Notes: generated by a model not told the origin, from the sequence alone. A stretch of DNA of 64,000 bases from an uncultured Acidobacteriota bacterium (GCA_963784195.1 CAWARA010000019.1:38088-102087), one strand, 5' to 3'. Shown: positions 9,456 to 40,939, counted from the first letter of the stretch. Numbers and translations are program-made.

Positions 9456-9753
9456 GACGGAGGTGACGGAGAGAACGGAACGAGCTTCAACTCAGAGAAA
9501 CGGAGCAACGGAGGTTCGTTGCCGGTCGCCACACTGCAGCCGATGCCGGCCCGGCCATGGGCCGGGCCGTGCGATCGACTGACACCCGAGAACACAAGCC
9601 ACGTGTTCAGAGTAGGGTGGCTTGTGTTCTCGGGTGTCAGTCGATCGCTCGCCGCGCAAGCGCGGCGGCATCGGCGCACGTGGCTTGCAGCCTCCGTTTC
9701 TCTGCGTCTCTGAGTTGAAGCTCGTTCCGTTCCCTCCATCCCCTCCCTCCGTC
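9456..9753. mobile_element. Nested palindromic (MITE-like) element, copy 1
   Basis: Terminal IRs GACGGAG..GAACGGAACGAGCTTCAACTC; internal four-way junction; homologous to 11978-12290 and 39182-39584. Confidence 0.8.
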
Positions 9754-9799
9754 AGCGCTGCTCCAACGCCCCCGTCACGTATTTGGCGCGGTCGGAGAA

Positions 9800-10609
9800 T
9801 CAGCAAGCAAGCAAGTTGGCTAAATGACCGAATTCCTGCAGCGTCAGCGTCTCGGGCCGGCGGACAGGGTCGATGTTGGCGGAAACCAACAAATCCCGGA
9901 CGTTGACACCCCTGCCTTCGGCAAACGGTCGCAAAGAATTGCCGAGGGTCTTCCGCCGTTGCGTGAAGACCGACCGAATCATCCCTGTAAAGACAGCGTC
10001 GTCAACGAGCCGGACGGCCGGCTGCTCGAGGAATCTGAGGCGGATCACCGCCGAATGCACCTTCGGCGGCGGCCGGAAGGCTCCCGGAGGGAGCGACAGC
10101 AGGCGCTGAACGTCCGCCCGGAGCTGGACGAGAACTGAAAGGACTCCGTAATCGCCAGTGCCGGGGCCGGCTTCGATACGGTCCGCCACCTCACGCTGCA
10201 ACATCAGCGTAGCGTCAGTGAAGACGCCGGTTGAACGCTGGACTTCGAGCAGCTTGAAGAGGATCGGCGACGCGACGTTGTAGGGAAGATTCCCGGCCAC
10301 CCGAAGCGGCGCGTCGCTCGGCCAGCGTGCAGCATCCGTTTCAAGAAAGTCCTGACGAATGATGGTGACGTTGGCAGGAACCTGCGGTTCGAGCGCCGAG
10401 GCCATGTCGCGATCGATCTCGACGGCCACGAGGGATTGAACCCGCGGAGCCAGCCGCAACGTCAGCGCGCCCGGACCCGGACCGATCTCCAGGAACCGGT
10501 CGTCAGGCCGGGGATCGATGGCCTTCACCAGCTTGTCCGCCCATGCGGGTTCCAGGAAATGCTGGCCGAAGCGCTTGCGCGCCTGCGGACGCCCCGGTCT
10601 AGATGTCAT
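9800..10609 (-). CDS. rsmA: 16S rRNA dimethyladenosine transferase
   Basis: RKRFGQHFL, LEIGPGPGALT, VAGNLPYN, MLQREVADRI, FRPPPKVHS; ATG at 10609. Confidence 0.96.
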   Translation of the reverse strand: MTSRPGRPQARKRFGQHFLEPAWADKLVKAIDPRPDDRFLEIGPGPGALTLRLAPRVQSLVAVEIDRDMASALEPQVPANVTIIRQDFLETDAARWPSDAPLRVAGNLPYNVASPILFKLLEVQRSTGVFTDATLMLQREVADRIEAGPGTGDYGVLSVLVQLRADVQRLLSLPPGAFRPPPKVHSAVIRLRFLEQPAVRLVDDAVFTGMIRSVFTQRRKTLGNSLRPFAEGRGVNVRDLLVSANIDPVRRPETLTLQEFGHLANLLAC

Positions 10610-10997
10610 CGAGCGACTCGCCGCGCCAGAACTTCTCTTCAATCTCCTCGATCTCTTCCTCGCTCATCCCGAAGTAATGCCCGAACTCGTGGATGATGGT
10701 TTCGGCGATGCAGTCGCGAATCTCGTCGTCGTCCTCGCACGCTTCCTCGATCGGCCCCTGATAGATCGAAATGCGATCGGGCAGGGCATTGCCGTAGCCC
10801 CATCCCCGGTCCGGCAAAGGCGTGCCCTGATAGAGCCCGAACAGCGTCTCGCCAGGGTCGGCCTCGACGTCATCGAGCACGTCCGGCGGAGGCTCATCCT
10901 CCACGACGACGGCCACGTTACGCATCTCGCGGCGGAACCGTGCGGGGATTTCACGGAGGGCTTCTTCGACGAGCTCGGTGAACTGTTCGCGGGTCAT
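10599..10997 (-). CDS. Zincin-like metallopeptidase family protein
   Basis: LFGLYQGTPL, PDRISIYQGPI, HEFGHYFG (HExxH). Confidence 0.9.
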   Translation of the reverse strand: MTREQFTELVEEALREIPARFRREMRNVAVVVEDEPPPDVLDDVEADPGETLFGLYQGTPLPDRGWGYGNALPDRISIYQGPIEEACEDDDEIRDCIAETIIHEFGHYFGMSEEEIEEIEEKFWRGESLDDI

Positions 10998-11941
10998 TTT
11001 TGGGTTTGCCGCGGGGCCCCGCCCCCGCGATTGCCTGCGGCTTTGCCGCTCGCCGTACTCGGGGAGCGATCCGCTTTCAGATCGGCTCTGTCCTGCGGCC
11101 CCACTGCCGCGACCGTGCCTCGCGGCTTTGGCGCTCGGCGTACTTCGGGGAGCGATCCGCTTTCAGATCGGCTCTGTCCTGCGGCCCCGCTGCCGCGACC
11201 TGTGCCTCGCGGCTTTGCCGCTCGGCGATCGGTGCTTCGAGGCTTTGGTGGGCGGCGCACGGAAGCGCGTTGTGTGGCCTCGTAGAAGTTGCAGTCGGTT
11301 CGGACAATGCAGCGGTCGCAGAGGGGGCGGGGCTTGCAGATGCGGCGGCCGTGCAGGATCAGCGTGTCGGAGGCTTGTGTCCACTCGGCGGGGGGGACTG
11401 CCGCATTCAGTTGTTGTTCGACGATCACGGGATCGTCGGACCTGGCGATGCCGATCCGATTGGAGACTCGCAGCACATGGCGATCGACCGGCAGGCCTGG
11501 CACGCCGAGGGCGTGACCGAGGACGACGTTGGCGGTCTTGCGGCCGACGCCTGGCAGGGCGGTGAGTTCATCCATCGTCTTTGGGATCTCGCCGGCGTGG
11601 TGCTCGACGACCTCGGTGGACATGCCGATGAGCGATCGGGACTTGGCGCGGAAGAAACCGGTCGACTGGATCTGCGGCTCGAGCTCGTCAGTCGTCGCGT
11701 TGGCTAGCGCTCGTGCATCGGGGTATCGGCGGAACAGCGTGGGCGTGACCTGATTGACGCGCTCGTCTGTGCACTGCGCGGAAAGGATCGTCGCGACGAG
11801 CAACTCGTAGGGGTTCGAGTAGTGCAGCTCGGTGTCGGCATTCGGGTGCTGAGTGAACAGCTGGTGGAGAATCCGGCGGGCGACGGCGGGCGGTTTGGAT
11901 GGCTTCGGTATCGCGCGTCGCGCGGCAGGCCGTTTCGGCAT
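10994..11941 (-). CDS. nth: Endonuclease III with a repeat-derived C-terminal extension
   Basis: LLVATILSAQCTDERVN, LPGVGRKTANVVL, VDRHV, 4Fe-4S motif C-KPRPL-C-DR-C-IVRTD-C; ATG at 11941. Confidence 0.95.
   Translation of the reverse strand: MPKRPAARRAIPKPSKPPAVARRILHQLFTQHPNADTELHYSNPYELLVATILSAQCTDERVNQVTPTLFRRYPDARALANATTDELEPQIQSTGFFRAKSRSLIGMSTEVVEHHAGEIPKTMDELTALPGVGRKTANVVLGHALGVPGLPVDRHVLRVSNRIGIARSDDPVIVEQQLNAAVPPAEWTQASDTLILHGRRICKPRPLCDRCIVRTDCNFYEATQRASVRRPPKPRSTDRRAAKPRGTGRGSGAAGQSRSESGSLPEVRRAPKPRGTVAAVGPQDRADLKADRSPSTASGKAAGNRGGGAPRQTQK
11037..11227. repeat. Tandem ~86 bp duplication in the nth tail
   Basis: Units start at 11037, 11122 and 11209 (partial); both full units contain GGGGAGCGATCCGCTTTCAGATCGGCTCTGTCCTGCGGCCCC. 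Confidence 0.85.
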
Positions 11942-11977
11942 GTGCCGATTGTAGTTGGTGTTTGAGGTGGGCGTGGC

Positions 11978-12290
11978 GACGGAGGTTACGGAGGGAACGG
12001 AACGAGCTTCAACTCGGAGACGCGGAGCAACGGAGACCACGCAGGTGGTGCCGGTGGCCGATGCCGCCGCGCGATGCGCGGCGGGCGATCGACCGAGGCC
12101 CCACGGACGCAAGCCGCGTTCAGAGTTGGATAGAGGCGGCTTGTGTCCGTGGGGCCTCGGTCGATCGCCGGCCCGGCCGATGGCCGGGCCGCCATCGGCT
12201 CGGAACGCCAGTTGAGGGTGAACTCTGTTAGACTCCGTTCCTCCGTTTCTCCGAGTTGAAGCTCGTTCCGTTCCCTCCGTAACCTCCGTC
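11978..12290. mobile_element. Nested palindromic (MITE-like) element, copy 2
   Basis: 58-bp terminal IR (first 43 bp perfect) enclosing a cruciform core. Confidence 0.85.
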
Positions 12291-12305
12291 AGCTGCCGCG
12301 CGCGT

Positions 12306-13200
12306 TCACCGGCTTGCGGTCGTCGGCAGCCTGGTGCCCTTCGCAGGAACAGCGGTCAGCAGAGCAATCAAGGCCTTGCTGTTGGCTTTCAGCCTCGACG
12401 TGCCGACGACGACCGTCTCGCCAACGTCCATCGAGAACGACGTGTCGATCACCAGCCGGCCGCGCGACGAGTCCTTGCTCTGATACCTCATCGCCGACTG
12501 TGATCGCTGCCGTCGCTCCATCGCTTCAAGCTGCGACTTGAGCTCCTTCGCGACATCCTCCTGATTGGCGCGTCGCGCTTCTGTCAGCTTTTGCCGCGTG
12601 GCCAAGATCTCGCGTTCCATCTTTTCGGTTTCTCGTTGCCGCTCGGCCACGGAGGCCATTTCTGCCACCGCATACTCGGATACGCCAGCGTCCCTCAATG
12701 TGAAGCGGACCGACACGCGCACGCCTTCGCCGCGGCTCGTCGCCAGGTTCACCTCGTAGTCCTGCTCTTCGGGACCGCGCAGGCGCGTCGTGGTATTGCC
12801 GGTACTCTGCCCGAGAATCCAGGCCGCATCGACCAGCTTGTAGGACTTGTAAGGCAGGAACTCCTTCATGTCCGTCAGCGCCCGCCGTGCCGCCGGGGGC
12901 ACGTCGTCGGGCGCCGTAGCGGCCTGCAGGTCGGCGACCACGAGCACCACGCTGAACCCCTGCGGCGCGCGAAAGGCGTCACGGCTCTGCGCGGGCGGCG
13001 CAGGCTGCGGGGTAGGCTGGCCGCGGTGTCTGCGCGGACGGCGGCTGCGTGCGCGGCGTCTGCACTGCTGGCACCGAACTACGCGGCGCCTGCGCTGGCG
13101 GCGCGGACGTCGGTGGCGCTTGTTGCGCCCGCACACCGATTCCGCTGGCCAGCGCCACGGCCGCCGCGATGGCCGAGACGTGTCGAACGCCGCACGTCAT
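12306..13200 (-). CDS. Secreted hypothetical protein (one frameshift near 13000-13030)
   Basis: ATG 13200 overlaps the upstream stop (ATGA); signal peptide MTCGVRHVSAIAAAVALASG continues in another frame into FSVVLVVADL..GETVVVGTS. Confidence 0.7.
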
Positions 13201-16548: not shown

Positions 16549-17128
16549 GGCAGACATGAGAGTCATGATTCAACGCGCGATCGTCATCAGCATCGTGGTA
16601 GTCCTCGCGACCGCGGCCACGGTGCGCGCGGAGCAGGGGAAAGAACCGCCCGCGAAGGGCGGCACCGCGCAGACCGAGGCCGATACCGCTGACGTCTTCA
16701 ACACGTTGCGCGCGACCAACGAGCTGATCGGTATGCTCGACGCGTACGCGACGATCCAGGCGCAGCAGGCACTGCAGCTGGGCGACGAGCAGTATGGCCG
16801 GTTCATTCCGCTGTTGAAGAAACTGCAAGAGACGCGGCGGCGGAATCAGCAGGCCCGCAACCGGATGATTGGCGAGTTGAGGCGGCTGGCAGGCCCGAGG
16901 GCAGCCGCGCCGGCAGACGAGGGAGTGATCGCCGAAAAGCTGAAGGCGTTACGCGAGCACGACGAGCGTGCGGCCGCCGAGATCCGCGCCGCCGTCGGGG
17001 CGATCGACGAGATTCTCACACCGCAGCAACAGGCCCGATTCCGCATCTTCGAAGAGCACATCGAAAACCGGAAGCTCGATCTCCTCCTGCGCGCGCGAGC
17101 CCGGGCCGGCCGTCAGGGCCGCCTGTAG
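16541..17128 (+). CDS. Periplasmic helical protein (Spy/CpxP-like)
   Basis: Signal peptide, helical body, C-terminal ILTPQQQARF (LTxxQ). Confidence 0.65.
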   Translation: MRKADMRVMIQRAIVISIVVVLATAATVRAEQGKEPPAKGGTAQTEADTADVFNTLRATNELIGMLDAYATIQAQQALQLGDEQYGRFIPLLKKLQETRRRNQQARNRMIGELRRLAGPRAAAPADEGVIAEKLKALREHDERAAAEIRAAVGAIDEILTPQQQARFRIFEEHIENRKLDLLLRARARAGRQGRL

Positions 17129-17148
17129 GCCCGACCTTCAGGTCGGGC
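17125..17148 (+). repeat. GTAG REP-like palindrome (family A)
   Basis: GTAGGCCCGACCTTCAGGTCGGGC, overlapping a TAG stop codon. Confidence 0.85.
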
Positions 17149-17210
17149 ATGCCTCAAACCAGCAATGTCGGGCGTGTCCACAAACCACGACCACCGTTGT
17201 ACAATTACTC

Positions 17211-17816: not shown

Positions 17817-19935
17817 ATGGACCCGCTTCAGAGTCCACTTCAGTACCTCAAAGGTGTCGGCCCCCGGCGCGCCGCTGACCTTCAGCGCGTCGGCCTGCAT
17901 ACGATCGAAGATCTGCTGTATCGGTTCCCGATCCGCTACGAGGACCGCGGCACATTTCAAACGATCGCCTCGTTGAAGCCCGGCGTCGCCGCATCGGTGA
18001 TCGGCGAAGTCGTCAGCGCCGGCATCCGCCCCACCCGCAGGCCCCGGTTCAAGATTTTCGAAATGCTCGTGCGCGACAAGTCGGGATCGTTGCGTGCGAT
18101 CTGGTTCAATCAGCCGTTCTTGAAGGACGTCTTCCGGCCGCATCAGCGCGTCATCCTGTACGGACGGCTGGAACTGACGTCACACGGCCTGCAGCTCCAG
18201 AACCCCCAATACGAAATCCTGCCGCAGGAAAGCGACGCGCCTGACGAGAGCGGTGAGCCGCCTGAAGACGAAACGCTGCATACCGGCCGCATCATTCCAA
18301 TCTACGAGAAGACCGGGACCCTCACGACGAAGATGCAGCGAGTGCTCGTGCATCACGCGCTCGCGCAACTCCCGGCGCAACTCCTCGATCCGTTGCCTGA
18401 CGACGTTCGCCGCCGGGCGCAGCTGATCGACCGGCGAACCGCGCTGTCGGATGTGCACTTTCCTCCCGAGGGCACGAACCTCGAAGACCTGAACCAGTTT
18501 CGCTCGCCTGCACAGCGGCGGCTGATCTTCGAGGAGTTCTTCCTGTTTCAACTCGGCCTGGTGCTGAGGAAACGCCGCGCCGAAGCGGAGAAGAAACCTC
18601 GCTCGGTGGTAATCACCGACGAGGTCAGGGAGGCTGCTCGCCGGGTGCTGCCGTTCCGCCTCACCGGCGATCAAAAGAAAGTGATTGCCGAGATCGTCGA
18701 GGACATGAAGCGCCCGCACCCGATGAACCGCCTGCTGCAGGGTGACGTCGGATCGGGGAAGACGATCGTCGCGTTGATGGCGGCGCTCGTGGCGATGGAG
18801 AACAACTTCCAGGTCGCGTTCATGGCGCCGACGGAAATCCTGGCCGAACAGCACTTCATCACCATCCGCAGGCTGCTGGAGTCATCCAGGTTTCGCATGA
18901 CCTTGCTGACCGGGGCGACGCCGGCGAAGAAGCGGCGCGAGCTCCAGGCGGAGCTTGCTGGCGGTTCGATCCACCTCGTGGTCGGCACGCACGCGCTCGT
19001 CGAGAATCCCGTCGCGTTTCGCGAGCTCGGCCTCGCGATCATCGACGAACAGCATCGCTTCGGCGTGATGCAGCGGGCCGCGCTTCGAGCCAAGGGCATG
19101 CACCCGGACGTTCTCGTGATGACGGCCACGCCGATTCCGAGGACGCTGGCGTTGACGACGTACGGCGATCTCGACGTCTCGGTGATGCGCGAGATGCCGC
19201 CAGGCCGTCACCCCATCAAGACGATCGCCAAGCCTGAAGCGCGGCGCGACGAGATCTACGACTTCGTCCGGCAGCAGCTGGATGCGGGCCGGCAGGCCTA
19301 CGTCATCTACCCGCTCGTCGAGGAGTCCGCCAAGGTCGACCTCCGGGCCGCAACCGAGATGGCGGATCATCTCGCCCAGGACATCTTCCCGGCCTATCGC
19401 GTGTCCCTCCTGCACGGGCGGATGACGCAGGAGGCGAAAGACCGCGCGATGCAAGCCTTTGCGCATGGCGAGGTCCAGATCCTCGTATCGACGACCGTCG
19501 TCGAGGTCGGTGTCGATGTGCCGAATGCGGCGGTGATGGTGGTCGAGCACGCCGAGCGTTTCGGCCTGTCGCAGCTGCATCAGTTGCGCGGCCGCGTCGG
19601 ACGCGGCGCGCATCAGTCGGTACTGCGTGCTGCTCTATCAGGCGCCGCTGACCGATCACGGGCGCGAACGCCTGAAGGCGCTGACCGAAACCACCGACGG
19701 CTTCGTGATCGCCGAGCGAGACCTGGCGCTTCGCGGGCCAGGGGACTTCTTCGGCACGCGTCAGTCCGGCATGCCCACGCTCAGGGTCGGCGACCTGCTG
19801 AGGGATCACCGGCTGATGGAAGATGCGCGGCGCGAAGCGGTCGCCGCGCTCGACGACGTCCGCGCGTCGGAGCCGCTCGTCGCATTTGTTCGATCGAGCT
19901 GGGAGCAGCGGTTTGGGTTGGTGGGGGTTGGTTGA
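17817..19935 (+). CDS. recG: ATP-dependent DNA helicase RecG (frameshift near 19620)
   Basis: [39 protein letters not shown]; C-terminus ([24 protein letters not shown]) is in the 19627-19935 frame. Confidence 0.95.
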
Positions 19936-19936
19936 T

Positions 19937-20053
19937 AATCGGAAATCGGAAATCGGCAATCGGAGATCGGGCAATCGGGGAATCTGGCAGATCGGCAGTC
20001 TGATGACGTCCGATTTCCGATTTCCGATTGCCGATTTCCGATTTCCGATTGCC
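19937..20053. repeat. Inverted heptamer tandem repeat (AATCGGA / TCCGATT)
   Basis: AATCGGAAATCGGAAATCGGCAATCGG... then TCCGATTTCCGATTTCCGATTGCCGATT..., between recG and rsmD. Confidence 0.9.
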
Positions 20054-20056
20054 CAT

Positions 20057-20600
20057 ATGCGCATAATCGCCGGTTCACTTGAAAGGCCGTCGTCTTGAGG
20101 CCCCCGAGTGGGAGGGCCTGCGACCGACATCCGATCGGCTGCGCGAGACGCTTTTCAACGTGCTGGCACCTGTCATCGAAGGGGCGCGCGTGATCGACGG
20201 CTATGCGGGGACGGGGGCGGTCGGCATCGAGGCGTTGAGCCGCGGGGCTGCGCACGTGACGTTCATCGAGCAGGACATGCGCGCCGTGCGGCTGATCGAG
20301 ACGAACCTGGCGCGCTGCGGTGTGAGGGAGCGCTATGCTATTATCCGCGCGGGGTTTGCGGGCGCAGCGCAACGGCTGGCGGGGGAGCAGGCGAACGTCA
20401 TCTTTCTCGACCCGCCGTACGGCCCAGCCGCGCTCGGTGAGGCGCTCGACAGCGCGTCGGCGCTGGCCTCGCCGGCCACCATCGTCGTTATCGAACATGC
20501 CAGGCGCGATGCGGCACCGGACTCGGCCGGCGCGCTGGTTCGCACGCGGGAACTGACGTCAGGCGACAGCGCGCTCGCGTTCTACCGGTGTCGGGCTTAG
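20057..20600 (+). CDS. rsmD: 16S rRNA m2G966 methyltransferase (frameshift near 20078)
   Basis: MRIIAGS/LKGRRL, RPTSDRLRETLFN, DGYAGTGAVGIEALSRGA, FLDPPY. Confidence 0.93.
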
Positions 20601-20687
20601 GCGCGCACGGCGCGCCTCGCCGTAGCCTTGGCGGAGGCGGGACCGAGCCGGGGTGTGGGGCGGAGCCCCACGTTAGCAAGGAGCCGC

Positions 20688-21192: not shown

Positions 21193-22434
21193 ATGCTCTC
21201 TCCCCGTGCAACCCGGATTGCCGTGTCCCCGACCATGAAGGTGGCCGCGGACGCAATGAAACTCAAAGCGGAAGGCGTCGACGTCGTCGATCTGGGGGCC
21301 GGCGAGCCCGATTTCCCGACGCCGGACCACGTCTCGGCCGCTGCACACGCCGCCATCGACGCCCACTTCACCAAGTACACGACGAACTCGGGCACCGACG
21401 AGCTGAAGCGCGCCATCGTCGCGCGCTATCGCGAGGACTGTGGCATCGAGTACACGACGGCCGAGACGATCGTCACCGCCGGCGGCAAACAGGCGCTGTT
21501 CAACTCGGTGATGGTGCTCTTCGGATCCGGCGACGAAGTGATCACGCACATGCCCGGCTGGCCGACGCTCGTCGAGCAGATCAAGCTCGCCGATGCGACG
21601 CCGGTCATCGTACGCACGCACGCCGAGGACGGCTTCCGCCTTCGCGCCGACACGATCCTCGGCGCCGTGACCGCCCGCACGCGCGGCATCATCATCAACT
21701 CGCCCAGCAACCCGACCGGCGCGCTAATCAGCGAGGCGGATCTCGAGCAGGTCGCCAAAGAGGCTGCCCGCCGCGGGATCTGGGTCCTGCTCGATCTCTG
21801 CTACGAGAAACTGATCTACGACCCGACGCCTCACAACCTGCCCGGTGTCCTGGCCCGGACGATGAAGGATCGCACCGTGCTGTGCGGATCGGCTTCGAAG
21901 GCCTACGCGATGACCGGCTGGCGCTGTGGCTGGGCGCTGGCACCGGCAGCCGTCGTGAGCGCGTGCAACGCGATTCAGAGCCACTCGACGTCGAACGTTT
22001 CGTCGATCACCCAGAAGGCAGCGGTCGCGGCGCTGAACGGGCCGCAGTCGTGCGTGACAGACATGCTGAACGAATACCGCCGCCGGCGCGATCAGCTGAC
22101 CACGTGGCTCGCCGAGGAACCGCGGCTGCGGCTCGTCAAACCGGCCGGAGCGTTCTACCTGTTTCCGGACGTGTCGGACTTTCTCTCGCCCGACGGGGTG
22201 CGCACGTCATCCGACCTCGCGGCCGGCTTGCTCAAGGATATGCGCGTGGCGATCACGCCTGGTGAAGCGTTCGACTCGCCAGGCTTCATCCGGATCTCGT
22301 ACGCCGCGTCGATGGAAGACTTGAAGCGCGGCGCCGAGCGAATCATCCAATACGTGCGAAGCATGGATCCGACCCCTGTAGGCCCGACCTTTAGGTCGGG
22401 CGTGCCGGATATAACCCCAGGCGTGCCGGAATAA
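21193..22434 (+). CDS. PLP-dependent class I/II aminotransferase (AspC-like)
   Basis: GEPDF, NSPSNPTG, SKAYAMTGWR, GAFYLF; C-terminal tail encoded by a REP. Confidence 0.93.
   Translation: MLSPRATRIAVSPTMKVAADAMKLKAEGVDVVDLGAGEPDFPTPDHVSAAAHAAIDAHFTKYTTNSGTDELKRAIVARYREDCGIEYTTAETIVTAGGKQALFNSVMVLFGSGDEVITHMPGWPTLVEQIKLADATPVIVRTHAEDGFRLRADTILGAVTARTRGIIINSPSNPTGALISEADLEQVAKEAARRGIWVLLDLCYEKLIYDPTPHNLPGVLARTMKDRTVLCGSASKAYAMTGWRCGWALAPAAVVSACNAIQSHSTSNVSSITQKAAVAALNGPQSCVTDMLNEYRRRRDQLTTWLAEEPRLRLVKPAGAFYLFPDVSDFLSPDGVRTSSDLAAGLLKDMRVAITPGEAFDSPGFIRISYAASMEDLKRGAERIIQYVRSMDPTPVGPTFRSGVPDITPGVPE
22378..22401 (+). repeat. GTAG REP-like palindrome (family A) inside the aminotransferase 3' end
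   Basis: GTAGGCCCGACCTTTAGGTCGGGC, translated as VGPTFRSG. Confidence 0.85.
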
Positions 22435-26714: not shown

Positions 26715-28365
26715 ATGCCACAGAACACCAAGCGCACCCCAGGGCGCGCTTCCGCCGATCCGGCGGCAGCGCCCGCGAACTCTTCTGCCGAAGCCGTCGC
26801 CCAGGCGCCAGAGCGCGAAGCGGCTCCTCCAGCCGCCGAGGCCCCGGTGAAGCCGGACGCCGCGCCGCGCCAGGACGGCAACCAGCGCCCGGACGGCAAC
26901 CAGCGCGTCCGAAGGTAACCAGCGGTCCGAGGGTAACCAGCGGCCCGAAGGCAACCAGCGGCCCGAAGGCAACCAGCGGCCCGAAGGCAACCAGCGGCCG
27001 GAGGGTAACCAGCGGCCTGAAGGTGGCCCGCGGCCCGAAGGAGGGCAGCGGCCTGAGGGAGGGCAACGTCAGGAGGGCGGCCAGCGTCAGGACGGCCGTC
27101 GCGGTCAGGGCCTCAACATCACCGAGCTGAAGGACAAGAGCATTCAACAGCTCACGCAGATCGCGAAGGACCTCAACGTCGCCGGCGCGACCGGCATGCG
27201 CAAGCAGGAGCTGATTTTCCAGATCCTGAAGGCGCAGACCGAGCAGAGCGGTTTCATCTTCTCGGAGGGCGTGCTCGAGGTCCTGCCCGATGGGTTCGGG
27301 TTCCTCCGCGCGCCGGACTACAACTATCTGCCCGGCCCGGACGACATCTACGTCTCGCCGTCACAGATCCGCAAGTTCGACCTTCAGACGGGCGACACCG
27401 TCTCGGGACAGATTCGCCCGCCGAAGGAAGGGGAGCGTTACTTCGCGCTGATCAAGGTCGAGGCGGTCAACTTCGAGGCGCCCGAGCAGGCACGCGACAA
27501 GCTGTTCTTCGAGAACCTGACGCCGCTCTATCCGCAGGAGCGCTTCACGCTCGAGACGATTCCGGACAACCTCTCCGGCCGCGTCATGGATCTGATGACG
27601 CCCATCGGCCGCGGCCAGCGCGGCCTCATCGTCGCACCCCCGCGCACCGGCAAGACGATGTTGCTGCAGAGCATTGCGCAGTCGGTGGCCCGGAATCACC
27701 CGGAGGTGTTCCTGATCGTGCTGCTGATCGACGAGCGGCCGGAAGAAGTCACCGACATGCAGCGGTCGGTGCAGGGCGAGGTCATCTCCTCGACCTTCGA
27801 CGAGCCGGCCCAGCGTCACGTGCAGGTCGCCGAGATGGTCATCGAGAAGGCCAAGCGTCTCGTCGAGCACCGCAAGGACGTGCTGATCCTGCTCGATTCG
27901 ATCACGCGCCTCGCGCGTGCGTATAACTCGGTCATCCCGCCGTCGGGCAAGGTGCTCTCAGGCGGTCTCGACTCGAACGCGCTGCAGAAGCCGAAGCGCT
28001 TCTTCGGCGCCGCCCGCAACATCGAAGAGGGTGGCTCGCTGACGATCATCGCCACCGCGCTCATCGACACCGGCTCGCGCATGGACGATGTGATCTTCGA
28101 GGAGTTCAAGGGCACGGGCAACATGGAGATCCATCTCGACCGGAAGCTCACCGACAAGCGCGTCTTCCCGTCGATCGACATGCAGAAGAGCGGCACGCGG
28201 AAGGAAGAGCTGCTGCTCGCGCGCGAGGATCTGAACCGCGTGTGGGTGCTGCGCAAGGTCCTGAACCCGCTGTCGGCGGTCGAGGCGATGGAGCTGCTGC
28301 TCGACAAGATGGGGAAGACGAAGTCGAACGGCGACTTCCTCGCGTCGATGCAGAAGATGGGGTAG
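26715..28365 (+). CDS. rho: Transcription termination factor Rho with a repetitive N-terminal extension (frameshift near 26908)
   Basis: [62 protein letters not shown]; the frame is open upstream to 26911 and joins ORF 26715 after one extra base. Confidence 0.95.
26874..27090 (+). repeat. Twelve 18-bp coding tandem repeats (E/D-G-N/G-Q-R-P)
   Basis: GAAGGCAACCAGCGGCCC-like units at 18-bp period; unit 2 is 19 bp. Confidence 0.92.
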
Positions 28366-28367
28366 TG

Positions 28368-28390
28368 GTCCGGCTGAAGCCGGACCCTAC
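28368..28390 (-). repeat. GTAG REP-like palindrome (family B)
   Basis: GTCCGGCTGAAGCCGGACCCTAC between convergent genes; similar copies at 30231, 42321, 60015. Confidence 0.85.
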
Positions 28391-30126
28391 GGAAGCTTCG
28401 TCACGCGCAGATCGAGCGTCAGCCGATCGTTCTCCACGAGCGTGATGCGCTGTCCGTGCTTCGCCAGGCGCTCATAGGAGTCACTGTCGAGCGGCCCGCG
28501 TATCGTGTCGTCGGCCCCAATCGCCACGATCAAATATTCGCCCGGCCGAATCAACTGCGTTTGATAGCTGCCGTCCGGCTTCGGCAGTGCGCCGCCAATG
28601 CCAAACGTTGTGGACCGCTTCCACTTCGCGGGATCTGCCGGCATCACAACAACCCTGGCGTCGAATGACGGTTGTCCCTGTTCATCGGTCACGCGTCCGC
28701 TCACACGCGCTCCCCGGTTGGTCAGCACGATTTCCAGCGTGTCGGCTGCGCGGCTGCCTGCGAAGTCAGTTGGCGTGTCCGTGATGTCCTGCCCTTTGAA
28801 TCTGACAGCCTTGACCACCCAGTCACGCGGCGGGAACAAGTTGATCACCTGCGGTCCGAAGAGACCTGCCAGCTCGAAGGTCAGGTCGCTCTTGACCTCC
28901 GCGTTCGGGGGCCCCCCAACGGACATGTACATGCGGTTGGACGTGTCCGGCATCGCCGAGACCCGCATCGTCGATGGGGGGCGATTCCCGGCCTCGTCTT
29001 CGAAGACCACGCGCCCAGACACGGTGGGCAGTTTACTTGTGGTAACCAGCAGCCCCTCGACGTCTGAACTCTCGACGCGGAAGGGAACATAACCAAACTC
29101 TCGTTCCCGTTTGTCGTCCGGATTGAATCGCGAGCCAATCTCCGCTCTGATGGCGTACTCGCCCGGCGTCACGCCACGCGCGACAAACTGCCCGCCGCCG
29201 CGCATCTCGATGCCCGTTGACGCGCTGCCACTCTGGTCCATCCTCACGATGTTGATGTTCGCGCGTTCGAGCGGAGCACCGGCGGCGTCCACGCGCCATC
29301 CCGGACACGGTGAACGCGCGGCTGCGCTGAAGGCGGATCTCGATGCCGCCTACGTCGCCCCCCGGACACGGTGACGACCGCCGCATCCGCATCAATGACA
29401 GCCGCCGGATGACACGTTTGAATCGCCCGGTCTTTCAGATCAGGATATGCTGGTCCGCCGAAGTTCCGCGGAATCGCACAGATGTTGTATCGGCCCGGCG
29501 CGATCCCATACACCCTGAACAGCCCGCGGTCGTCGGTCATCGCCGAATACGGGCCTGACATGCCCGCGCGCTGGCCGTTCTCCGGATTTTTTGCGAACAC
29601 CTCAACGCCGGCCATCGGTTCGCCGAATTCATCGACGACTCGACCTTCGACGGCGGCCGTGCGCCAAAGGGCGATGTTGACGTTCTCCCGAACCTCTCCG
29701 TCCGCGAGGGTCAGCGGCCTGGGACGCCGCATTCTCGAGAAATCGGGTGGGCGGTCGTCCCCAAAACCCTGATTCAGGTGCGTTGCGCGGAATTCACCGG
29801 GCGGGCCGTGACCGTGTACTCGCCGGCTGGCAGATTCTTCAGTTCGTACTGACCGTCGGCCGTCGTGATCACTGACAGCGCCCGACCTTGCGTCTGCTGC
29901 ATCAGAACAGCGGACGTAACCATTACAATCGCCCGCGCAATCGGTTGACCGCTCTCCTGATCGGTGACCTTCCCGCGAATGATCCCGGTGCCGGTTCGCG
30001 GCGCCGCGTCACGTGCCGCGTCGCGCGGCATGACGGCGCCTGGCGTGGCGGGGGAGGAGGCGGGGGCGGGGGTACAGGAACTTGAAGCGCCGCGAGCAAG
30101 ACCAGGGGAAGAACCAAGCTGCCCAT
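28387..30126 (-). CDS. Carboxypeptidase-regulatory-like (Cna-B type) repeat protein, several frameshifts
   Basis: Signal peptide and poly-Pro from ATG 30126; repeated GxIxGRVxD..G.P / TDxxGxF / PGxY domains across ORFs 29774, 29244 and 28387. Confidence 0.8.
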
Positions 30127-30196: not shown

Positions 30197-30253
30197 GTAG
30201 GGTCAGGCTGGAGGACGGAGAACACGGAGGGTCCGGCTGAAGCCGGACGCTAC
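30197..30253. repeat. REP family B with a degenerate inverted partner
   Basis: GTAGGGTCAGGCTG (30197) ... GTCCGGCTGAAGCCGGACGCTAC (30231-30253). Confidence 0.7.
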
Positions 30254-30273
30254 GAGCGACGAGTACGGGACGA

Positions 30274-34826: not shown

Positions 34827-35822
34827 TCACGACCGATCTAATTTCGCGAGCGTTTCGTAGTGCTCGCGTTGCTCGCGGGTCAGGGCGCGCGGCAGCTGGA
34901 CGTCGATCGTGGCGTAGAGATCGCCGCGCTCGTCCGGCTTGCCCACCACCGGCATGCCATGCCCCTTCAGCCTGAACACCTGCCCGTTCTGCGTCGTCTC
35001 TGGAATCTTGAGCCGGACTGAACCGGCGACCGTCGGCACCTGCGATTCGCCGCCAAGCACGGCCGTCGTAACCGGGACACTGACCCGCGTATGCAGGTCG
35101 TTGCCCTTTCGCTCGAAGACCGGATGCGGACGGATTCGAACCCGCAGGTAGAGGTCGCCTGATGTGCCGCCATTGCTTCCCGATTCACCCTCCCCAGCCG
35201 CCCTGACGCGAGAGCCCTCCCTGACACCCGGCGGAATCCGTACGTCAACGCTGCGCGCGTGTCCGCCCTGTTTGATCGAGATACGCCGGGTGGCGCCGTG
35301 ATAGGCCTCTTCGAGCGTAAGCTCGACCTCGTGCTCGATGTCGCGGCCTTTCTGGGTCCGCGGGGCACGAGTGGTTCGCTGGCGTCCCGCAGCCTCCCGA
35401 TCCCGGCCGCCGAAGAAGGTCTTGAAGAAGTCCGAGAAGGGGTCTTCGTTGCCGAAGAGATCCTGCATTTCCTCTTCGGTCATCGTGCGGTAGCCGCCGG
35501 GGCCGCCCATGTTGATGTTCCAGGCACCGCCGCCGAATCCGGCGGCGTCAGCACCCGGCCACGGCTGACCCTGCTGATGCGCCTGTTCGTACATCCGCCA
35601 GTTGGCGCCCAGCTCGTCGTACTTGCGCCGCTTGTCGGAGTCGCCGAGCACCTCGTAGGCCTCGTTGATCTCCTTGAAGCGTGCCTCCGCCGACTTGTCG
35701 CCAGGGTTCACGTCCGGATGGAATTTGCGGGCGAGCTTCCGGTACGCCTGCTTGATCTCTTTTTCAGACGCGCTCTTGGCGACGCCGAGCGTCTGGTAGT
35801 AGTCCTTGAACTCCACAGCCAT
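34827..35822 (-). CDS. DnaJ-class co-chaperone lacking the zinc finger (CbpA-like)
   Basis: J-domain with HPD, G/F region, C-terminal DnaJ domain, no CxxCxGxG repeats. Confidence 0.93.
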   Translation of the reverse strand: MAVEFKDYYQTLGVAKSASEKEIKQAYRKLARKFHPDVNPGDKSAEARFKEINEAYEVLGDSDKRRKYDELGANWRMYEQAHQQGQPWPGADAAGFGGGAWNINMGGPGGYRTMTEEEMQDLFGNEDPFSDFFKTFFGGRDREAAGRQRTTRAPRTQKGRDIEHEVELTLEEAYHGATRRISIKQGGHARSVDVRIPPGVREGSRVRAAGEGESGSNGGTSGDLYLRVRIRPHPVFERKGNDLHTRVSVPVTTAVLGGESQVPTVAGSVRLKIPETTQNGQVFRLKGHGMPVVGKPDERGDLYATIDVQLPRALTREQREHYETLAKLDRS

Positions 35823-35828: not shown

Positions 35829-35918
35829 GACGACGGTTCACAACGAGGGTTCAGCACAGGGGTTCACGACGAAGGTTCAGCACGGGGGTTCACGACGAAG
35901 GTTCATCACGAGGGTTCT
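35829..35918. repeat. 13-bp tandem repeat between the HspR-like and DnaJ genes
   Basis: About 7 units of ACGANGGTTCANN. Confidence 0.85.
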
Positions 35919-36344: not shown

Positions 36345-36374
36345 AATATAGGTATTGATACGGTCTGTGTCAAC
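36345..36374 (-). promoter_or_regulatory. Heat-shock operon promoter with overlapping HAIR-like operator
   Basis: TTGACA - 17 bp - TATATT on minus; GTTGACA-N7-TATCAAT (36354-36374) has the spacing of CTTGAGT-N7-ACTCAAG. Confidence 0.65.
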
Positions 36375-36390
36375 TCTCACAGTCGACTGA

Positions 36391-37129: not shown

Positions 37130-37194
37130 CAGGCCGCTTAGCGCGGCCTGCGATGGGCGATGGGCAATGGGGCAAGGCCCTTTGCCATTGGCGA

Positions 37195-39031
37195 TCAGTA
37201 GGTGCCCGAGAGCTTGAGCTCCAGCGTCTCGGTCGATCCCTCTTCGAGCGTGAAGCGGCGGCCCTTGCCCTTGAGCCGTTCGAGCAGTTCCGGATCGCCC
37301 CATTCACCCGAAGGAATGTATTCGACCGCCACGGCGTGATAGCTGCCGGGCGGCATGTTCTGCACCTTGAAGCGGCCGTCCTGATCGGGCCGCGTGCCGG
37401 TGACCCATCGCGACATCGGCATTTTCCACAGCTCGGGATCGTCGGAGAAAATCACCAGCGTGTAGTCCTTCATCGCCGTTCCGTCCGCGCCGACCACCGA
37501 ACCGGTGATCGATGTGGTCTGTGACGACAGCGTGATCTCGATGCCCGAGACGGTGTCGCCCGCGCGGAAGTCGGCGCCGGTGTCGGTGATGTCCGTGCCG
37601 CCCATCCGAACAGACTTGAGCGTCCAGCCCGACGGGAGGGCGGCCGTGCGAATCAGCCGCTGACCGGCGAGCCCTTTGAGCTCGAACGTGCCGTCTTCCT
37701 TGACTGCGCCCGGGCCGGGGGCTCCGGCGAATCCAAGGGTCATCGCGGGGGAATCAGCCGGCGGCGCCGAGATGCGGATGCTTGTCACGTTCGGCGGTTT
37801 GGCGCCACCTTCGAACGTGACCTTGCCCGTTGCCGTAGCCCCCTTCGATCGTCGTCAGCACGATGTTGGGAAGATCTTCACCAGCCACGACAAGCGGCAC
37901 CGATCCGAACTCCGCCTCGCCGCCACCACCACCGGCCGCTGTCCTCATCTGGAAGACCATCGTGTTCCCGCCCTCGGAGGACGTGATGACCTGCATCGCG
38001 TTGGCATTCAGCTGGTAGTCGCCGGGTGCCACGTTGTTGATCGTGAAGGCGCCGTCAGCATTCGTCCTGCTGGAGTTCTGCATGCCCAGCATGACCTCGG
38101 TGCGCGAGCTCGGCGAGGCGGTCACCATCGCGCCGGAGAGCGGTTTGCCGTCGGAACCGATCACGATGCCGGTAATCTTGGCCAGACGAACCGGCGTCAG
38201 CGCGAAGTCGGCGTTCCCGATCTCCTGTCCAACGGCGAGTGTGACCCTCTGGGCGTCGGCGACGTTGAACGTGCCCGGGAAGTACGTCGGCGCGTAGCCT
38301 GACGAAGGGTTGGAGGCTGTGGGCCCCGCCTCGTTGAATCCCGCTCGAACGCTCGCCGCCATTTCGACCGCCATCATGTCGATCGGTCCGCGGAGCGTGG
38401 CACTGATGTAGTAGTCGCCCGGAGGCAGGCCGTAGATGCGGAACTGTCCGAGATCGTTGGTTTGTGCGATTCGGCCGCCGGCCGGCGTCATGCGACGGCG
38501 ACCGTTCGTCCACGTCTGGCGCATCGCCGTAACGTTGACGTCAGGCAGCGGCTCGCCAAACTCGTCGACGATGCGGCCGGCGATGACGCTGCCGCGCGGC
38601 ATGGTGATGTCGGCGTTCTCGAGCACCTGCTTGTCGGTCAGCTCGATTGGCCGGCCGGACTCGAACGGGCGCGTCTGGCCGTACTGCACCGTGACGTAGC
38701 CGGATTTCGAGGCCGAGAGGTTGAACCGTCCGCCGGGCAAATCGCGAAACTCGAAGCGGCCCTCGCCGTCGGTCATCGCCGTCTTCGCCATGATCTCGGG
38801 TCCCATGATGCGGACTTGCGCCCGCCGGATGGGCGCGCCGGACTCGGTCGTCAGCACCCGGCCGGTGATCCGCGCAGTGCCCGTCTTGAACTGCCGGCCC
38901 TGGCCCGGCATCTGGAACGGCTCGCCCGGCCCGCCCTGAATGATCTGGACCTGCGCGGCCGCCGACACGATCCCCAGTGCAACCGCTGCCGTCACGACGC
39001 CCGCGATTTTGGTGAAATTGCGCATGTGCAT
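37195..39031 (-). CDS. Carboxypeptidase-regulatory-like repeat protein (frameshift near 37848)
   Basis: Signal peptide; repeated GRV..G.P / TDGEGRF / PGDY domains; paralog of 28387-30126. Confidence 0.85.
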
Positions 39032-39163
39032 CCTGTTCTTCTTCCGTTGGTGTCGGCTGGAAGTTCCCTGACCCGTATCCCACCCTGTCCGCCGCCTGAT
39101 TTTCACACGGACTCAGCTGCGGAGACTGCGGCTTATTTGTTAAGAATGTAAAACCTTGTCCAG

Positions 39164-40939
39164 TCAAGCCGATGGCGCGGGAACGGAGATGACGGAGGTA
39201 ACGGAACAAGCTTTAACTCGGAGGCGCGGAGGAACGGAGGTCGATTCCTCACGAGTGACCACACGCCCAACCGCCGATGCCGCCGCGCGCAGCGCGGCGA
39301 GCGATCGACCGACACCCCGCGGGCGCAAGCCGCGGGCGAACGGTGGATGCGGCTTGTGCCCGCGGGGTGTCGGTCGATCGCCCGGCCCGGCCGACGGCCG
39401 GGCCGGCATCGGCCGCAAAGGGCGTCCACAGCCGTCGCTCTGCACCGATCCCGCAACAAGTGGTCGTCCGTCAGCTCCGAGCCAAGCCGGCCGATCGGTT
39501 TGACCCCTATCGCCTGATCCGCGTATCTCCGTTCCTCCGCGTCTCTGAGTTGAAGCTTGTTCCGTTTCCTCCGTACCCTCCGTCTCCACGACAACAAGGA
39601 AGGCAACTCCCGAGCCCAGGACCCCCGCGATGGTCGGGGTGAGTGCGCCGTAGCCAGCGCCGTTGGTGGCGAAGTGGACGAGGACCAGGATGGGGACTCC
39701 GGCCAGAGTCGCCAGTCCCTGGCGCCGGCCGCGGCCGCCGCCGTAAAGTCCGCCGACAACAGGCACGAACAGCGTAACGATCAGCAACGAGTAAAACGTG
39801 CTGATCGTCTGCAGGATGGTCTCGTGCATCATCGCCAGCCCGACACCGAACACACCGCCGATGACGGCCGCCGCCCGGGCGACCAGAAGGGTCTCGCGAT
39901 CGCTGGCGTCCGGCTTCACGAACCCTCGATACAAGTCTTTCGATGCTGACGTCGCGACCATCAGAAGCACCGCGTCCGCGGCGCTCGCCTCCGCCGAGAA
40001 CACCGCCGCGAGCGCCAGCCCCCCTAGAAACGGCGGCAGCGCCGCCGCCATCGTCGCAAACGCCAGGTCACGGGGAATGTCGGGAAAGAGGGTCCGCGCT
40101 GAGAGCCCGATGATCGTCGGGACGGCTGCGAAGATGATCAACGCGACGCCGTTGAGCGCCACGCCGGTCCTGATCGCCTGCGTGTCGCGCGCCCCGAGCG
40201 CCTTCTGCACCAGACCCGGCGAGACGATGAACGCCGGTGCCAGGAAGAACAGCAACCGCCATCCCGATTGCGGAGAGCCGCCGGCAAACAGATCGAGCCG
40301 CGACGGGTCCGCAGTGATGGCCGACCAGCCGCCGGCAAGCGCCATGGCAATCGGCGTCACCAGCGCAAACCCGACCAGCTTGATGACGAGCTGCACGAGG
40401 TTGACGTATGCGGTGCTGAGGAGCCCGCCGGCAACGAAGTAAATGCTGACAATCGCGGCTCCGGCGATGCATCCGGCCAGCTTCGACATCCCGGCCGCCA
40501 CCGCCAGCACCGTGGCGATTCCCTGCAACTGCGACGCGAGAATGTGAAGCGTACCGACCCAGATGAGCACCGCGACCACGCCGCGGAGCGTCCGGTCGTA
40601 GCGCCGCTCGATGAAGTCTCCGAGCGTCAGATCGCCATGCTCGACCGACTCGCGCCAGAGGCGCGGACCGACGCTGAACGCGAAGATCAATGATCCGATT
40701 CCGGCCGAGGCATTCCACCACCACGCGCTGATGCCGTCGCGATATGCAAGGGAGGCCGCGTTGACGGTCGCGCCGGCACCGATGTTCGCCGCGAGGAATG
40801 TCGCGAAGATCAGGCCCGGGCCGAGCGTACGGCCGGCAATGAAGAAATCGCCAGTTGCGCGGACGCGCCGTCCGATCCAGAGACCGAGCGCGGCCATCAG
40901 GACCGAGTAGACGAGTAGGACGGCGAGCGTCGGACTCAC
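39164..40939 (-). CDS. Sodium:solute symporter; 3' end reads through a palindromic element
   Basis: DFFIAGRTL, AANIGAG, TLGDFIERRY, many TM helices; the last ~140 aa come from the repeat. Confidence 0.9.
   Translation of the reverse strand: MSPTLAVLLVYSVLMAALGLWIGRRVRATGDFFIAGRTLGPGLIFATFLAANIGAGATVNAASLAYRDGISAWWWNASAGIGSLIFAFSVGPRLWRESVEHGDLTLGDFIERRYDRTLRGVVAVLIWVGTLHILASQLQGIATVLAVAAGMSKLAGCIAGAAIVSIYFVAGGLLSTAYVNLVQLVIKLVGFALVTPIAMALAGGWSAITADPSRLDLFAGGSPQSGWRLLFFLAPAFIVSPGLVQKALGARDTQAIRTGVALNGVALIIFAAVPTIIGLSARTLFPDIPRDLAFATMAAALPPFLGGLALAAVFSAEASAADAVLLMVATSASKDLYRGFVKPDASDRETLLVARAAAVIGGVFGVGLAMMHETILQTISTFYSLLIVTLFVPVVGGLYGGGRGRRQGLATLAGVPILVLVHFATNGAGYGALTPTIAGVLGSGVAFLVVVETEGTEETEQASTQRRGGTEIRGSGDRGQTDRPAWLGADGRPLVAGSVQSDGCGRPLRPMPARPSAGPGDRPTPRGHKPHPPFARGLRPRGVGRSLAALRAAASAVGRVVTREESTSVPPRLRVKACSVTSVISVPAPSA
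39182..39584. mobile_element. Nested palindromic (MITE-like) element, copy 3
   Basis: Same terminal IRs and cruciform core as copies 1 and 2, with a longer right-hand spacer. Confidence 0.85.

Follow-up and report, generated by a model that had tools for sequence, protein, structure and literature searches.

A palindromic repeat family of Acidobacteriota with a sequence-conserved junction and a central helix conserved in its pairing

Three copies of a nested palindromic element in a 64-kb window

A stretch of 64,000 nucleotides from the genome of an uncultured Acidobacteriota bacterium (CAWARA010000019.1, positions 38088-102087; hereafter the window, in which coordinates are given unless otherwise stated) was found to contain three copies of a nested palindromic element, at 9456-9753 (W1), 11978-12290 (W2) and 39182-39584 (W3). 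All three lie inside runs of minus-strand genes, upstream of the next gene in the run. W1 is neighboured by ksgA and the gene for RNase J (rnj), W2 by a hypothetical gene and an endonuclease III-like gene, and W3 by the genes for a sodium:solute symporter and a CarboxypepD_reg protein. An earlier note, made from the sequence of the window alone, had described these copies, and the coordinates and motifs that it gave are all present in the sequence.

The window copies are 298-403 bp long and the family described below ranges from 270 to 403 bp, with one cargo-carrying copy (L002) of 824 bp. The element is built around two outer inverted arms and a core with two small hairpins, A and B, on either side of a central stem. 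The window contains six occurrences of the arm core AACGGAACRAGCTTYAACTC, two in each copy and on opposite strands, where shuffles predict 0.01, and three of the hairpin-B pattern, for which the expected number is likewise 0.01. A repeat finder recovered the arm pairs of W2 (58 nt, 95% complementary), W1 (60 nt, 87%) and W3 (67 nt, 84%) as well as the central-stem pairs (38-41 nt, 90-95%).

When genome contigs were scanned for the 20-mer arm core, five loci were recovered; none came from the genome of the window, which is apparently absent from that collection. Four of the five loci belong to a single metagenome-assembled genome (MAG) named 'uncultured Acidobacteriota bacterium' (contigs CAVQAH010000004, 16, 17 and 21), each with an element (L001, L002, L004 and L005), so that the family comprises seven copies together with those of the window. 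The fifth locus, L003 from a Crocinitomicaceae MAG, was a seed-only match of 16 bits at model positions 18-39 and was discarded as a chance hit. No further or degenerate copies were detected with nhmmer profiles of the core and arm or with a covariance model run with filters off over 84,100 bases, and the total of seven is a lower bound on the size of the family. The best match of the covariance model outside the family, at 32 bits, was an unrelated palindrome of heptad units at 19923-20071. Three copies were thus present in 64 kb of the window, as compared to four exact-seed loci in the related MAG.

The seven cores were oriented with hairpin A first and hairpin B last and then aligned, and a consensus structure was obtained with RNAalifold. 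The core is approximately 140 nt long and its consensus fold consists of a closing stem GCCGATG(C)/(G)CATCGGC, hairpin A of 8 bp (CGCCGCGC...GCGCGGCG), a central hairpin of 32-33 bp with a loop of 13-18 nt, and hairpin B of 10 bp (CGGCCCGGCC...GGCCGGGCCG). Both hairpins, of 19 nt (A) and 23 nt (B), are GC-only palindromes that differ in sequence. Spacers of 16-113 nt separate the core from the arms, which are approximately 58 bp long and display, from the outside inwards, three CGGAG/CGGAA units at 9-nt spacing, GAGCTTCAACT, and three CGGAG/CAGAG units at 8-nt spacing. The outer ends of the arms are not sharp and vary by whole 9- or 14-nt units, and in L002 and L005 extra or irregular 7-9-nt units are found there.

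The features of the window copies were located with the repeat finder and an arm profile (arms) and with the alignment, the fold and the covariance model (cores). In W1, the left arm on the hairpin-B side (9456-9513, plus strand) carries six CGGAG-type units around GAGCTTCAACT and is extended outwards by approximately four 14-nt tandem units GGGGACGGAGTTCA at 9404-9462, as identified by Tandem Repeats Finder. The W1 core of 137 nt (9539-9675) has its A-to-B polarity on the minus strand, with the closing stem at 9539-9545/9669-9675, hairpin B at 9547-9569, the central hairpin at 9571-9648 (loop 9603-9616) and hairpin A at 9650-9667. The right arm on the hairpin-A side (9692-9753, minus strand) is the most degenerate in the window. 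W2 has its left, hairpin-A-side arm at 11978-12035 (plus strand) and its right, hairpin-B-side arm, 95% complementary to the left one, at 12233-12290 (minus strand). They surround a core of 143 nt on the plus strand (12057-12199), with the closing stem at 12057-12063/12193-12199, hairpin A at 12065-12083, the central hairpin at 12085-12168 (loop 12118-12135) and hairpin B at 12169-12191. In W3, the left arm on the hairpin-A side (39182-39239, plus strand) is followed by a core of 141 nt on the plus strand (39273-39413), with the closing stem at 39273-39279/39407-39413, hairpin A at 39281-39299, the central hairpin at 39301-39381 (loop 39334-39348) and hairpin B at 39383-39405. A long B-side spacer of 113 nt (39414-39526) then leads to the right arm (39527-39584, minus strand), which was delimited by the repeat finder and the open reading frames (ORFs) and abuts the final codons of the symporter gene.

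Among the MAG copies, L004 is complete, whereas L005 lacks hairpin B and most of one central arm. L001 consists of the core and the B-side arm only, and GGATC-rich direct repeats take the place of the arm on its A side. The core is therefore either able to join a repeat arm of a different type or has been truncated by one. These direct repeats have a period of approximately 42 nt, GCGGATCTCC[R]GGGATCA..CGGGACGCG, and are located at L001 positions 1690-1815.

Conservation and covariation of the core

Folded as single-stranded DNA, the whole elements reached -162, -138 and -163 kcal/mol, with z-scores of -21.6 (0 of 100 shuffles as good), -20.5 (0 of 200) and -15.9 (0 of 100). Between copies, the arms of the closing stem and the hairpin regions are 0.93-0.96 identical, the outer arms 0.88 and the arms of the central stem 0.77, and the central loop falls to 0.33. 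The loops and spacers are the least conserved parts of the element.

The central stem is nevertheless paired throughout the intact copies, where diverged sequence goes together with perfect pairing or one to two G-T pairs per copy (W1, W2, W3 and L004); the three central-stem sequences previously quoted for the window are correct and paired. That of L002 is fully paired except for a 1-nt bulge, and the chimeric L001 has six mismatches, all of them transitions. In the alignment of the seven sequences 96.4% of the cells were paired, compared to 91.2 +/- 0.7 after shuffling of the columns. Fifteen pairs had changes in both partners, as compared to 5.3 +/- 1.7 in the shuffles, none of 500 of which reached 15, and sliding the partners by 1-3 columns left 0-5 such pairs.

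Fourteen of these 15 compensated pairs are within the central helix, where they make up 14 of 33 pairs. The closing stem (7 of 8 pairs), hairpin A (7 of 8) and hairpin B (10 of 10), by contrast, are made almost entirely of invariant pairs, and since they hardly vary they are conserved rather than covarying. The extensive covariation with a conserved four-way junction that the earlier note had proposed is thus narrowed: the four-way junction is conserved in sequence, and covariation supports the central helix only.

No concerted evolution of the arms was detected, the identity being 0.879 within an element and 0.876 between elements. Two examples of covariation had been suggested for these terminal inverted repeats; both are real, although one is a shared change in copy 3 and the other a site that agrees in five of six elements, and the covariation of the arms is weak. 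Several mismatches in copy 3 had been described as G-T on the plus strand. By our reading there are four of these, accompanied by two A-C and three transversion-type mismatches.

Inversion of the central loop

The order of the side hairpins in W1 is opposite to that in W2, and the 9-mer GTTCAGAGT of the central loop is on the plus strand in both, just as had been noticed before. Measured against the A/B order, the 9-mer GTTCAGAGT is thus oriented oppositely in the two loops, for which the chance probability is approximately 6e-4 by our own arithmetic. The internal inversion that had been proposed from this arrangement was confirmed, with its extent limited to the loop. A polarity of the arms was also apparent, as AAA at arm positions 43-45 was found in four of seven B-side arms and in none of six A-side arms (p approximately 0.05, Fisher test by our own arithmetic). 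Parvovirus terminal hairpins, which occur in flip and flop orientations, provide an analogy for the inversion of the loop. Template switching between inverted repeats is described as homogenising the arms and inverting the spacer (PMC8604942), and the loop inversion between W1 and W2 is the footprint expected of such switching between repeat arms.

Recurrence of the whole unit at unrelated loci

L005 aligns with copy 2 (W2) over its full length in reverse orientation at 208 bits, and both spacers are homologous, while the flanking genes of the two are unrelated. L005 and copy 2 form, as judged from this alignment, one subfamily. A second case was found at the protein level. When translated copy 3 (W3) was compared to 5.8 billion predicted proteins, two relatives were found among 71 candidates, and one of these proteins, P0013 from another contig, matches copy 3 through the 113-nt spacer with 70% identity over 114 aa. 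Its first approximately 76 residues have no significant match in the window. Both pairs, L005 with copy 2 and P0013 with copy 3, show at the level of sequence comparison that the whole unit including its spacers is what gets copied to new loci.

A second translated frame, from copy 2, had no relatives among four candidates in the same proteins, and none of 72,556 plasmids or 50,697 phage records was matched by copy 2 in blastn. Accordingly, the distribution of the family is narrow or has at least been sampled poorly. The element was not described in the texts, supplements and figures aside, of the literature consulted on palindromic repeats and MITEs (miniature transposable elements with inverted repeats) of Acidobacteriota and other bacteria. 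The repeat family is statistically solid and apparently undescribed.

The 11-mer TTTGAGGTGGG is located 6 nt outside the left arm of W2 (11961-11971, plus strand, from a motif search) and 16 nt outside an arm of L005 (1956-1966), and these are its only two occurrences in all sequence examined. Read on the other strand, it is found 19 and 18 nt upstream of unrelated start codons, those of the endonuclease III-like gene and a GcvT-like gene. Read on the plus strand, it holds a GAGGTG resembling a Shine-Dalgarno sequence, after which a GTG or ATG starts a reading frame that enters the arm. The 11-mer may be an outer piece of the subfamily or a preferred target. It lies on opposite sides of L005 and copy 2 relative to their internal polarity, which may reflect either an interior flipped by recombination between the arms or insertion in both orientations beside a similar site.

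Coding capacity, gene context and a possible function in RNA or as a binding site

All seven copies are intergenic, one of them touching the 3' end of a gene. The four MAG copies are all between divergent genes, and in the window the polarity of W1 is opposite to that of W2 and W3 despite gene runs of the same direction. The last hydrophobic segment of the symporter, whose SSF domain spans residues 32-388, is encoded immediately before the start of W3. Because no stop codon intervenes, the symporter ORF runs through all 403 nt of W3 and ends at 39164, 16 nt past the element, by which approximately 137 residues are added. W1 and W2 yield spurious ORFs of 69-182 aa on both strands. The element is without coding capacity of its own.

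Two further roles were considered and rejected. A conserved peptide seemed to be indicated by a TEGTE...RAST frame, opened by the Shine-Dalgarno-like GAGGTG and a start codon in copy 2 and L005, and was discarded because the two frames diverge past the arm, the interiors being inverted. A guide-like role of the variable stem was tried with three 19-mers, which had no other match at up to three mismatches in the window and the loci outside the elements.

The earlier note had left open a structured RNA family, that is, a structured non-coding RNA or a cis-acting mRNA module in which the four-way junction is functional and pairing is under RNA selection. The very stable predicted fold and the 15 compensated pairs agree with such a function, as do a G-U pair at one position in four of the seven copies, a greater richness in G-U pairs of the A-to-B strand, and the co-directional gene runs around the window copies, in which read-through transcription is expected. 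However, the loops and single-stranded spacers are the least conserved parts, and a near-perfect Watson-Crick helix of 33 bp is unusual for a functional bacterial RNA. The strands are also alike in fold and score: opposite-strand folds are within 0.7-11 kcal/mol of each other, and the covariance model gives 87-104 bits on the reverse strand in five of six full copies (72 in L001), as compared to 111-143 bits forward. The A/B polarity relative to transcription is reversed in W1 as compared to W2 and W3, the central loop is inverted between copies, and all four MAG copies are located between divergent genes. Scans for promoters and terminators gave no signal beyond chance.

A search of Rfam, which the earlier note had proposed, matched the element to no family. 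At the gathering threshold only a tRNA passes in the whole window. With copy 2 at E-values up to 10, on both strands, miRNA-precursor models reached 30-34 bits (cut-offs 84-297) and CC1840 reached 29.9 bits (cut-off 50), and the best of these sub-threshold matches were to long hairpins of a generic kind, with 34 bits where the cut-off is 90. A structured RNA is disfavoured and we regard it as improbable. The element is rather seen as a repeat at the DNA level, because its unpaired parts are the least conserved, both strands fold, its polarity is not tied to transcription, Rfam holds no match and its parts invert.

The gene context bears also on a function as a cis element that the host has recruited and that would act in double-stranded or cruciform form. 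A DNA-binding protein with a nucleoid-associated, regulatory or topological role, as has been proposed for REP (repetitive extragenic palindromic) sequences and BIME, would then bind to the twelve CGGAG units and the two GC palindromes, and the copies would be retained for this function. The iteration of CGGAG units at 8-9 nt in both arms and the invariance of the A and B palindromes amid drifting neighbours are in line with this. So is the fact that every copy adjoins at least one gene start, the MAG copies being in four divergent promoter regions and the three window copies upstream of the next gene; the arm-adjacent 11-mer, moreover, precedes start codons by 18-19 nt at two unrelated loci. 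The neighbouring genes, however, have no common theme (RNase J, endonuclease III-like, CarboxypepD_reg, kinase, DedA, EamA, GcvT-like), the truncated or chimeric copies L001 and L005 follow no pattern, and no candidate binding protein is known. The absence of convergent flanking genes in seven of seven copies is not significant (approximately 0.13, our own arithmetic). We consider a host-recruited element unlikely.

Target sites and the search for a mobilising enzyme

No target-site duplication had been visible at the window copies, and this holds for the family: no consistent duplication was found in the six complete copies, three of which have unrelated 4-5-mers and three nothing of 4 nt or more. 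The window was annotated for the 150 longest (at least 132 aa) of its 213 ORFs of at least 100 aa, to which the statements on its ORFs below refer. In agreement with the earlier note, no transposase was seen among them, and the only such names in the annotation were weak AAA-type matches inside ClpB. The previous designation as a non-autonomous element is supported, given that the whole unit is found again at unrelated places of another genome, codes for nothing itself and has no transposase in its vicinity.

Several of these properties could be accounted for by a MITE of the classical cut-and-paste type that stems from a DDE insertion sequence, if the arms were transposase binding ends and the core a passenger palindrome. 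The terminal inverted repeats are long and contain several repeated motifs, the intergenic position and the size of 270-400 bp (824 bp in L002) agree with this, and the insertion of W3 at the extreme 3' end of the transporter gene extended its frame. Yet target-site duplications are absent from all six complete copies, the ends are not sharp and vary by repeat units, the core is more conserved than the arms, the core of L001 is found with a different type of arm, and no parent insertion sequence was detected in the window, the plasmids or the phages. A MITE of this type therefore appears a poor candidate with only a small probability.

Copies in which the arms enclose an ORF were sought, as the earlier note had advised, and one was found. 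In L002, an intact GxxExxY gene is located between the core and the B-side arm, in the A-to-B direction; it is the only enclosed ORF of the family and does not encode a known transposase. Its product matched TIGR04256 with 134.9 bits (cut-off 35) and PF13366 (PDDEXK_3) with 131 bits and belongs to the PD-(D/E)XK fold. This protein might be the autonomous partner, a structure-specific nuclease that would cut the junction or cruciform of empty copies and be spread by repair in the manner of a homing endonuclease, with the repeat family as its landing sites. The intact gene in its particular position is suggestive, junction-resolving enzymes are found among PD-(D/E)XK folds, and the GxxExxY family is very large (18,205 representative clusters). 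Multiple horizontal transfers are reported for PF13366 in a survey (PMC3424549).

The gene is, however, present in only one of the seven copies. A search with the read-through ORF of core plus nuclease returned itself alone, one match among 471 candidates, and none of the best 150 GxxExxY representatives of the 18,205 clusters had an extension matching the element DNA. No GxxExxY protein was among the annotated window ORFs, although a gene of approximately 125 aa could fall under the 132-aa cut-off, and no solved structure related by sequence (best E = 0.75) gives a clue to function. Because its association with the element was not seen again, we favour a passenger or an independent insertion for the GxxExxY gene and find its role as the autonomous partner highly doubtful.

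At least five REP-like hairpins with a GTAG tag were noticed in the window, at 17125-17163, 22378-22416 and 62222-62260 on the plus strand and at 28367-28391 and 30230-30254 as the reverse complement. Examples are GTAG GCCCGACC TTCA GGTCGGGC and, on the other strand, GTAG CGTCCGGC TTCA GCCGGACC. The stem GCCCGACC is one base off the hairpin-B stem GCCCGGCC. In the text of PMC3733652, repeats of the GTAG REP superfamily are associated with genes for REP-associated tyrosine transposases (RAYT), and the hairpins suggest, by their sequence, that a RAYT gene may be present elsewhere in the genome. The same text describes a distinct group of tyrosine transposases in Acidobacteria that are flanked by long inverted repeats, termed TIRYT (PMC3733652).

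Other repeats in the window and in the MAG

Several other repeats were observed. The palindrome already mentioned as the best non-family match extends over 19937-20056, between recG and an RsmD-like methyltransferase gene, and has a 46-nt centre flanked by two 97% complementary arms of 34 nt, which consist of AATCGGA heptads in tandem. It resembles the element in style, the arms of both being made of short tandem units. Between W1 and W2, an 86-nt tandem repeat (2.3 copies, 93% matches) is present at 11032-11227, with a Zincin_1 gene on one side and, on the other, the part of the endonuclease III-like ORF (10997-12112) that bears the domain; the repeat is overlapped by this ORF.

An 18-nt tandem array GGCAACCAGCGGCCCGAA of approximately nine copies with degenerate continuations (26877-27092) is located just upstream of the ORF for rho. 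As this ORF matches Pfam Rho_N from profile position 25 onwards, the rho gene may start further upstream or be interrupted. A 26-nt tandem repeat GGTTCACGACGAAGGTTCAGCACGGG (3.2 copies, 35835-35917) is directly upstream of a dnaJ-like gene (34830-35822).

The tRNA-Pro(CGG) gene at 46947-47023 has its 3' part repeated 12.9 kb downstream at 59856-59923 (85% over 68 nt). Six repeats of 41-64 nt, each containing the hairpin CGATTCG-CGGGA-CGAATCG, are found between the two, at 47777, 50816, 53941, 55134, 58039 and 59378, in a region with genes for a split tannase, a PAS histidine kinase, a response regulator and hydrolases. This region looks like an island or a cassette-like array, and no integrase family was found among its scanned ORFs. 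Finally, short stretches outside the element are 87-90% identical between the window and the MAG (63-142 and 20618-20656 with L005 663-740; 59909-59956 with L004 585-631) and are probably other shared repeat families.

Discussion

The element is best read, at slightly better than an even chance in our estimation, as a lineage-restricted, non-autonomous, mosaic palindromic DNA repeat of Acidobacteriota that is closest in logic to REPINs and MITEs. Four modules may be distinguished. The outer inverted arms of approximately 58 bp have fuzzy, slippage-prone ends, and the two spacers are free in length and sequence and able to hold cargo. The near-invariant junction GCCGATG/CATCGGC with hairpins A and B would be a REP-like heterodimer and the part recognised by sequence, and in the central hairpin of 32-33 bp the middle may take any sequence if its arms match.

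Such a unit may move, or once have moved, in the form of a folded single strand on which an enzyme that recognises hairpins acts in trans; an HUH/Y1 transposase of the RAYT/TIRYT kind would be the most likely type of this enzyme. An enzyme of this type acting on folded single strands is the most plausible because no target duplications are present and the architecture is rich in hairpins, taken together with the REP-like hairpins of the window and the transposases of Acidobacteria. The central stem would be kept paired mainly by template switching within the palindrome or by hairpin-templated correction, and the same process could have inverted the loop. Selection on the single-stranded hairpin as a substrate of mobility may be an additional or alternative force; selection on such a hairpin has been argued for REPINs (PMC3116915). 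We lean to template switching because of the loop inversion between W1 and W2, the near-absence of G-T intermediates in the intact copies, and central-stem arms that diverge faster than the outer arms (0.77 versus 0.88) and yet stay paired; seven copies cannot separate the two forces. The process that maintains pairing is not instantaneous, as the conserved G-T pair and the decayed L001 indicate.

Several observations weigh against this interpretation. Mobility is read from the distribution of copies alone, with no empty site or excision product seen, and no transposase, integrase, HUH or PDDEXK_3 family matched any scanned ORF of the window. A G-T pair at central position 53:88 (A-to-B orientation) is retained in four of the seven copies, from two genomes, which argues against rapid homogenisation from arm to arm. 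G-T pairs are also commoner on the A-to-B strand (9 cells versus 2-3), a bias that by our own count reduces to approximately 5 versus 2 independent events and is not decisive. Together, the strand bias and the 53:88 pair leave room for a strand-specific constraint on RNA or single-stranded DNA. As to structure, hairpins A and B are preceded by GATG and lack a GTAG or CGTC tag, and the long arms of iterated CGGAG have no counterpart in REPINs. The arms resemble the multiple subterminal binding sites of DDE transposons, elements which do make target duplications. Finally, the evidence base is seven copies.

The likeness to REPINs is otherwise considerable. Like these, the element is extragenic and non-coding, makes no target duplication and has alternative long-hairpin and clover folds; its two short conserved palindromes are inverted around a hairpin-forming spacer with compensatory changes, and the 7-nt leader GCCGATG is the same on either side of its junction module. 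A and B differ in sequence, and the pair is for this reason regarded as a heterodimer. Heterodimers of different REP hairpins are known from the text of PMC3733652, in which REPs are defined as short palindromes of 20-40 nt that end on one side in a GTAG or CGTC tag, which is unpaired. As far as the text of PMC3116915 goes, the spacer of REPINs appears to need only its length and hairpin-forming capacity, with compensatory changes being common. In our element, on the other hand, the bases before A and B are GCCGATG(C/G) and are paired with CATCGGC, the core of approximately 140 nt with its 33-bp central helix is several times larger, and the spacers are free and able to hold a gene. The annotated window ORFs include no RAYT (Y1 HUH) gene with element units on its flanks.

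TIRtrons with their TIRYT genes, as presented in the text of PMC3733652, belong to the same phylum and have long inverted repeats in moderately abundant families, some with self-complementary tracts. G-rich motifs are shared as well, GGGGWSAS there and GGGGACGGAG here as compared to the wording of that text (PMC3733652), although GGGGACGG deviates from GGGGWSAS at position 7. The element differs also in that no tyrosine transposase gene was seen between or beside its arms.

MITEs (Correia, ERIC/IRU, RUP and Nezha) and the mosaic repeats BIME, BOX and RIME are like the element in their terminal inverted repeats, small size and mosaic make-up, and in intergenic or gene-end insertion with extension of reading frames. 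The inverted ends of the element (58-67 nt, 84-95% complementary) and its small size conform to the definition of a MITE, whereas the fixed-length target duplication at sharp ends that is also part of this definition is lacking. Its three nested levels of palindromes and an interior more conserved than the ends set it further apart. No parent was found in the window, plasmids and phages, the only enclosed gene being that of the GxxExxY nuclease-fold protein.

Integron attC sites are recognised as folded single strands and have a variable yet paired centre between conserved boxes, a property shared by the element. They are defined as imperfect single hairpins of 55-140 nt with R and L boxes, beside cassettes and an integron integrase. 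The element is, by contrast, a four-way fold within long arms, is far larger and lacks the signature of extrahelical bases; neither an integrase family among the annotated window ORFs nor a cassette context was found. Quasi-palindromes shaped by template switching are similar in that the arms of the element stay identical while drifting and its loop is found in both orientations (W1 and W2). Template switching is, however, a mutational mechanism, which explains the upkeep of pairing and not the origin or the spread of the element. Since the REP tag, the target duplication and the sharp ends are all lacking, the element is not assigned to a named family and is filed as a palindromic repeat of unusual architecture and a known general nature.

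A more radical view would see in the family a new class of selfish DNA defined by structure. The invariant junction core, made up of the closing stem, both side hairpins and the base of the central stem, would be the substrate of a junction or hairpin nuclease or recombinase, with GxxExxY as a candidate, the spacers would be cargo bays, and the central palindrome would correct itself and drift, geometry alone mattering. We give this view a very low probability.

Acidobacteriota are abundant soil bacteria whose repeat content has been little described. In the family reported here two constraints are separated, as the junction is fixed in sequence and the central helix in its pairing only, the latter diverging faster than the arms. 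The footprints of loop inversion make it a natural system for distinguishing selection from replication template switching in bacterial palindromes. The elements extend reading frames, as seen in the tail of approximately 137 aa on the transporter ORF, create spurious ORFs and likely break assemblies. If the reading of GxxExxY as a junction nuclease were true, it would provide a first function for this very large uncharacterised family. If a mobilising enzyme is found, the REPIN/RAYT paradigm would be extended to a new phylum and a new architecture.

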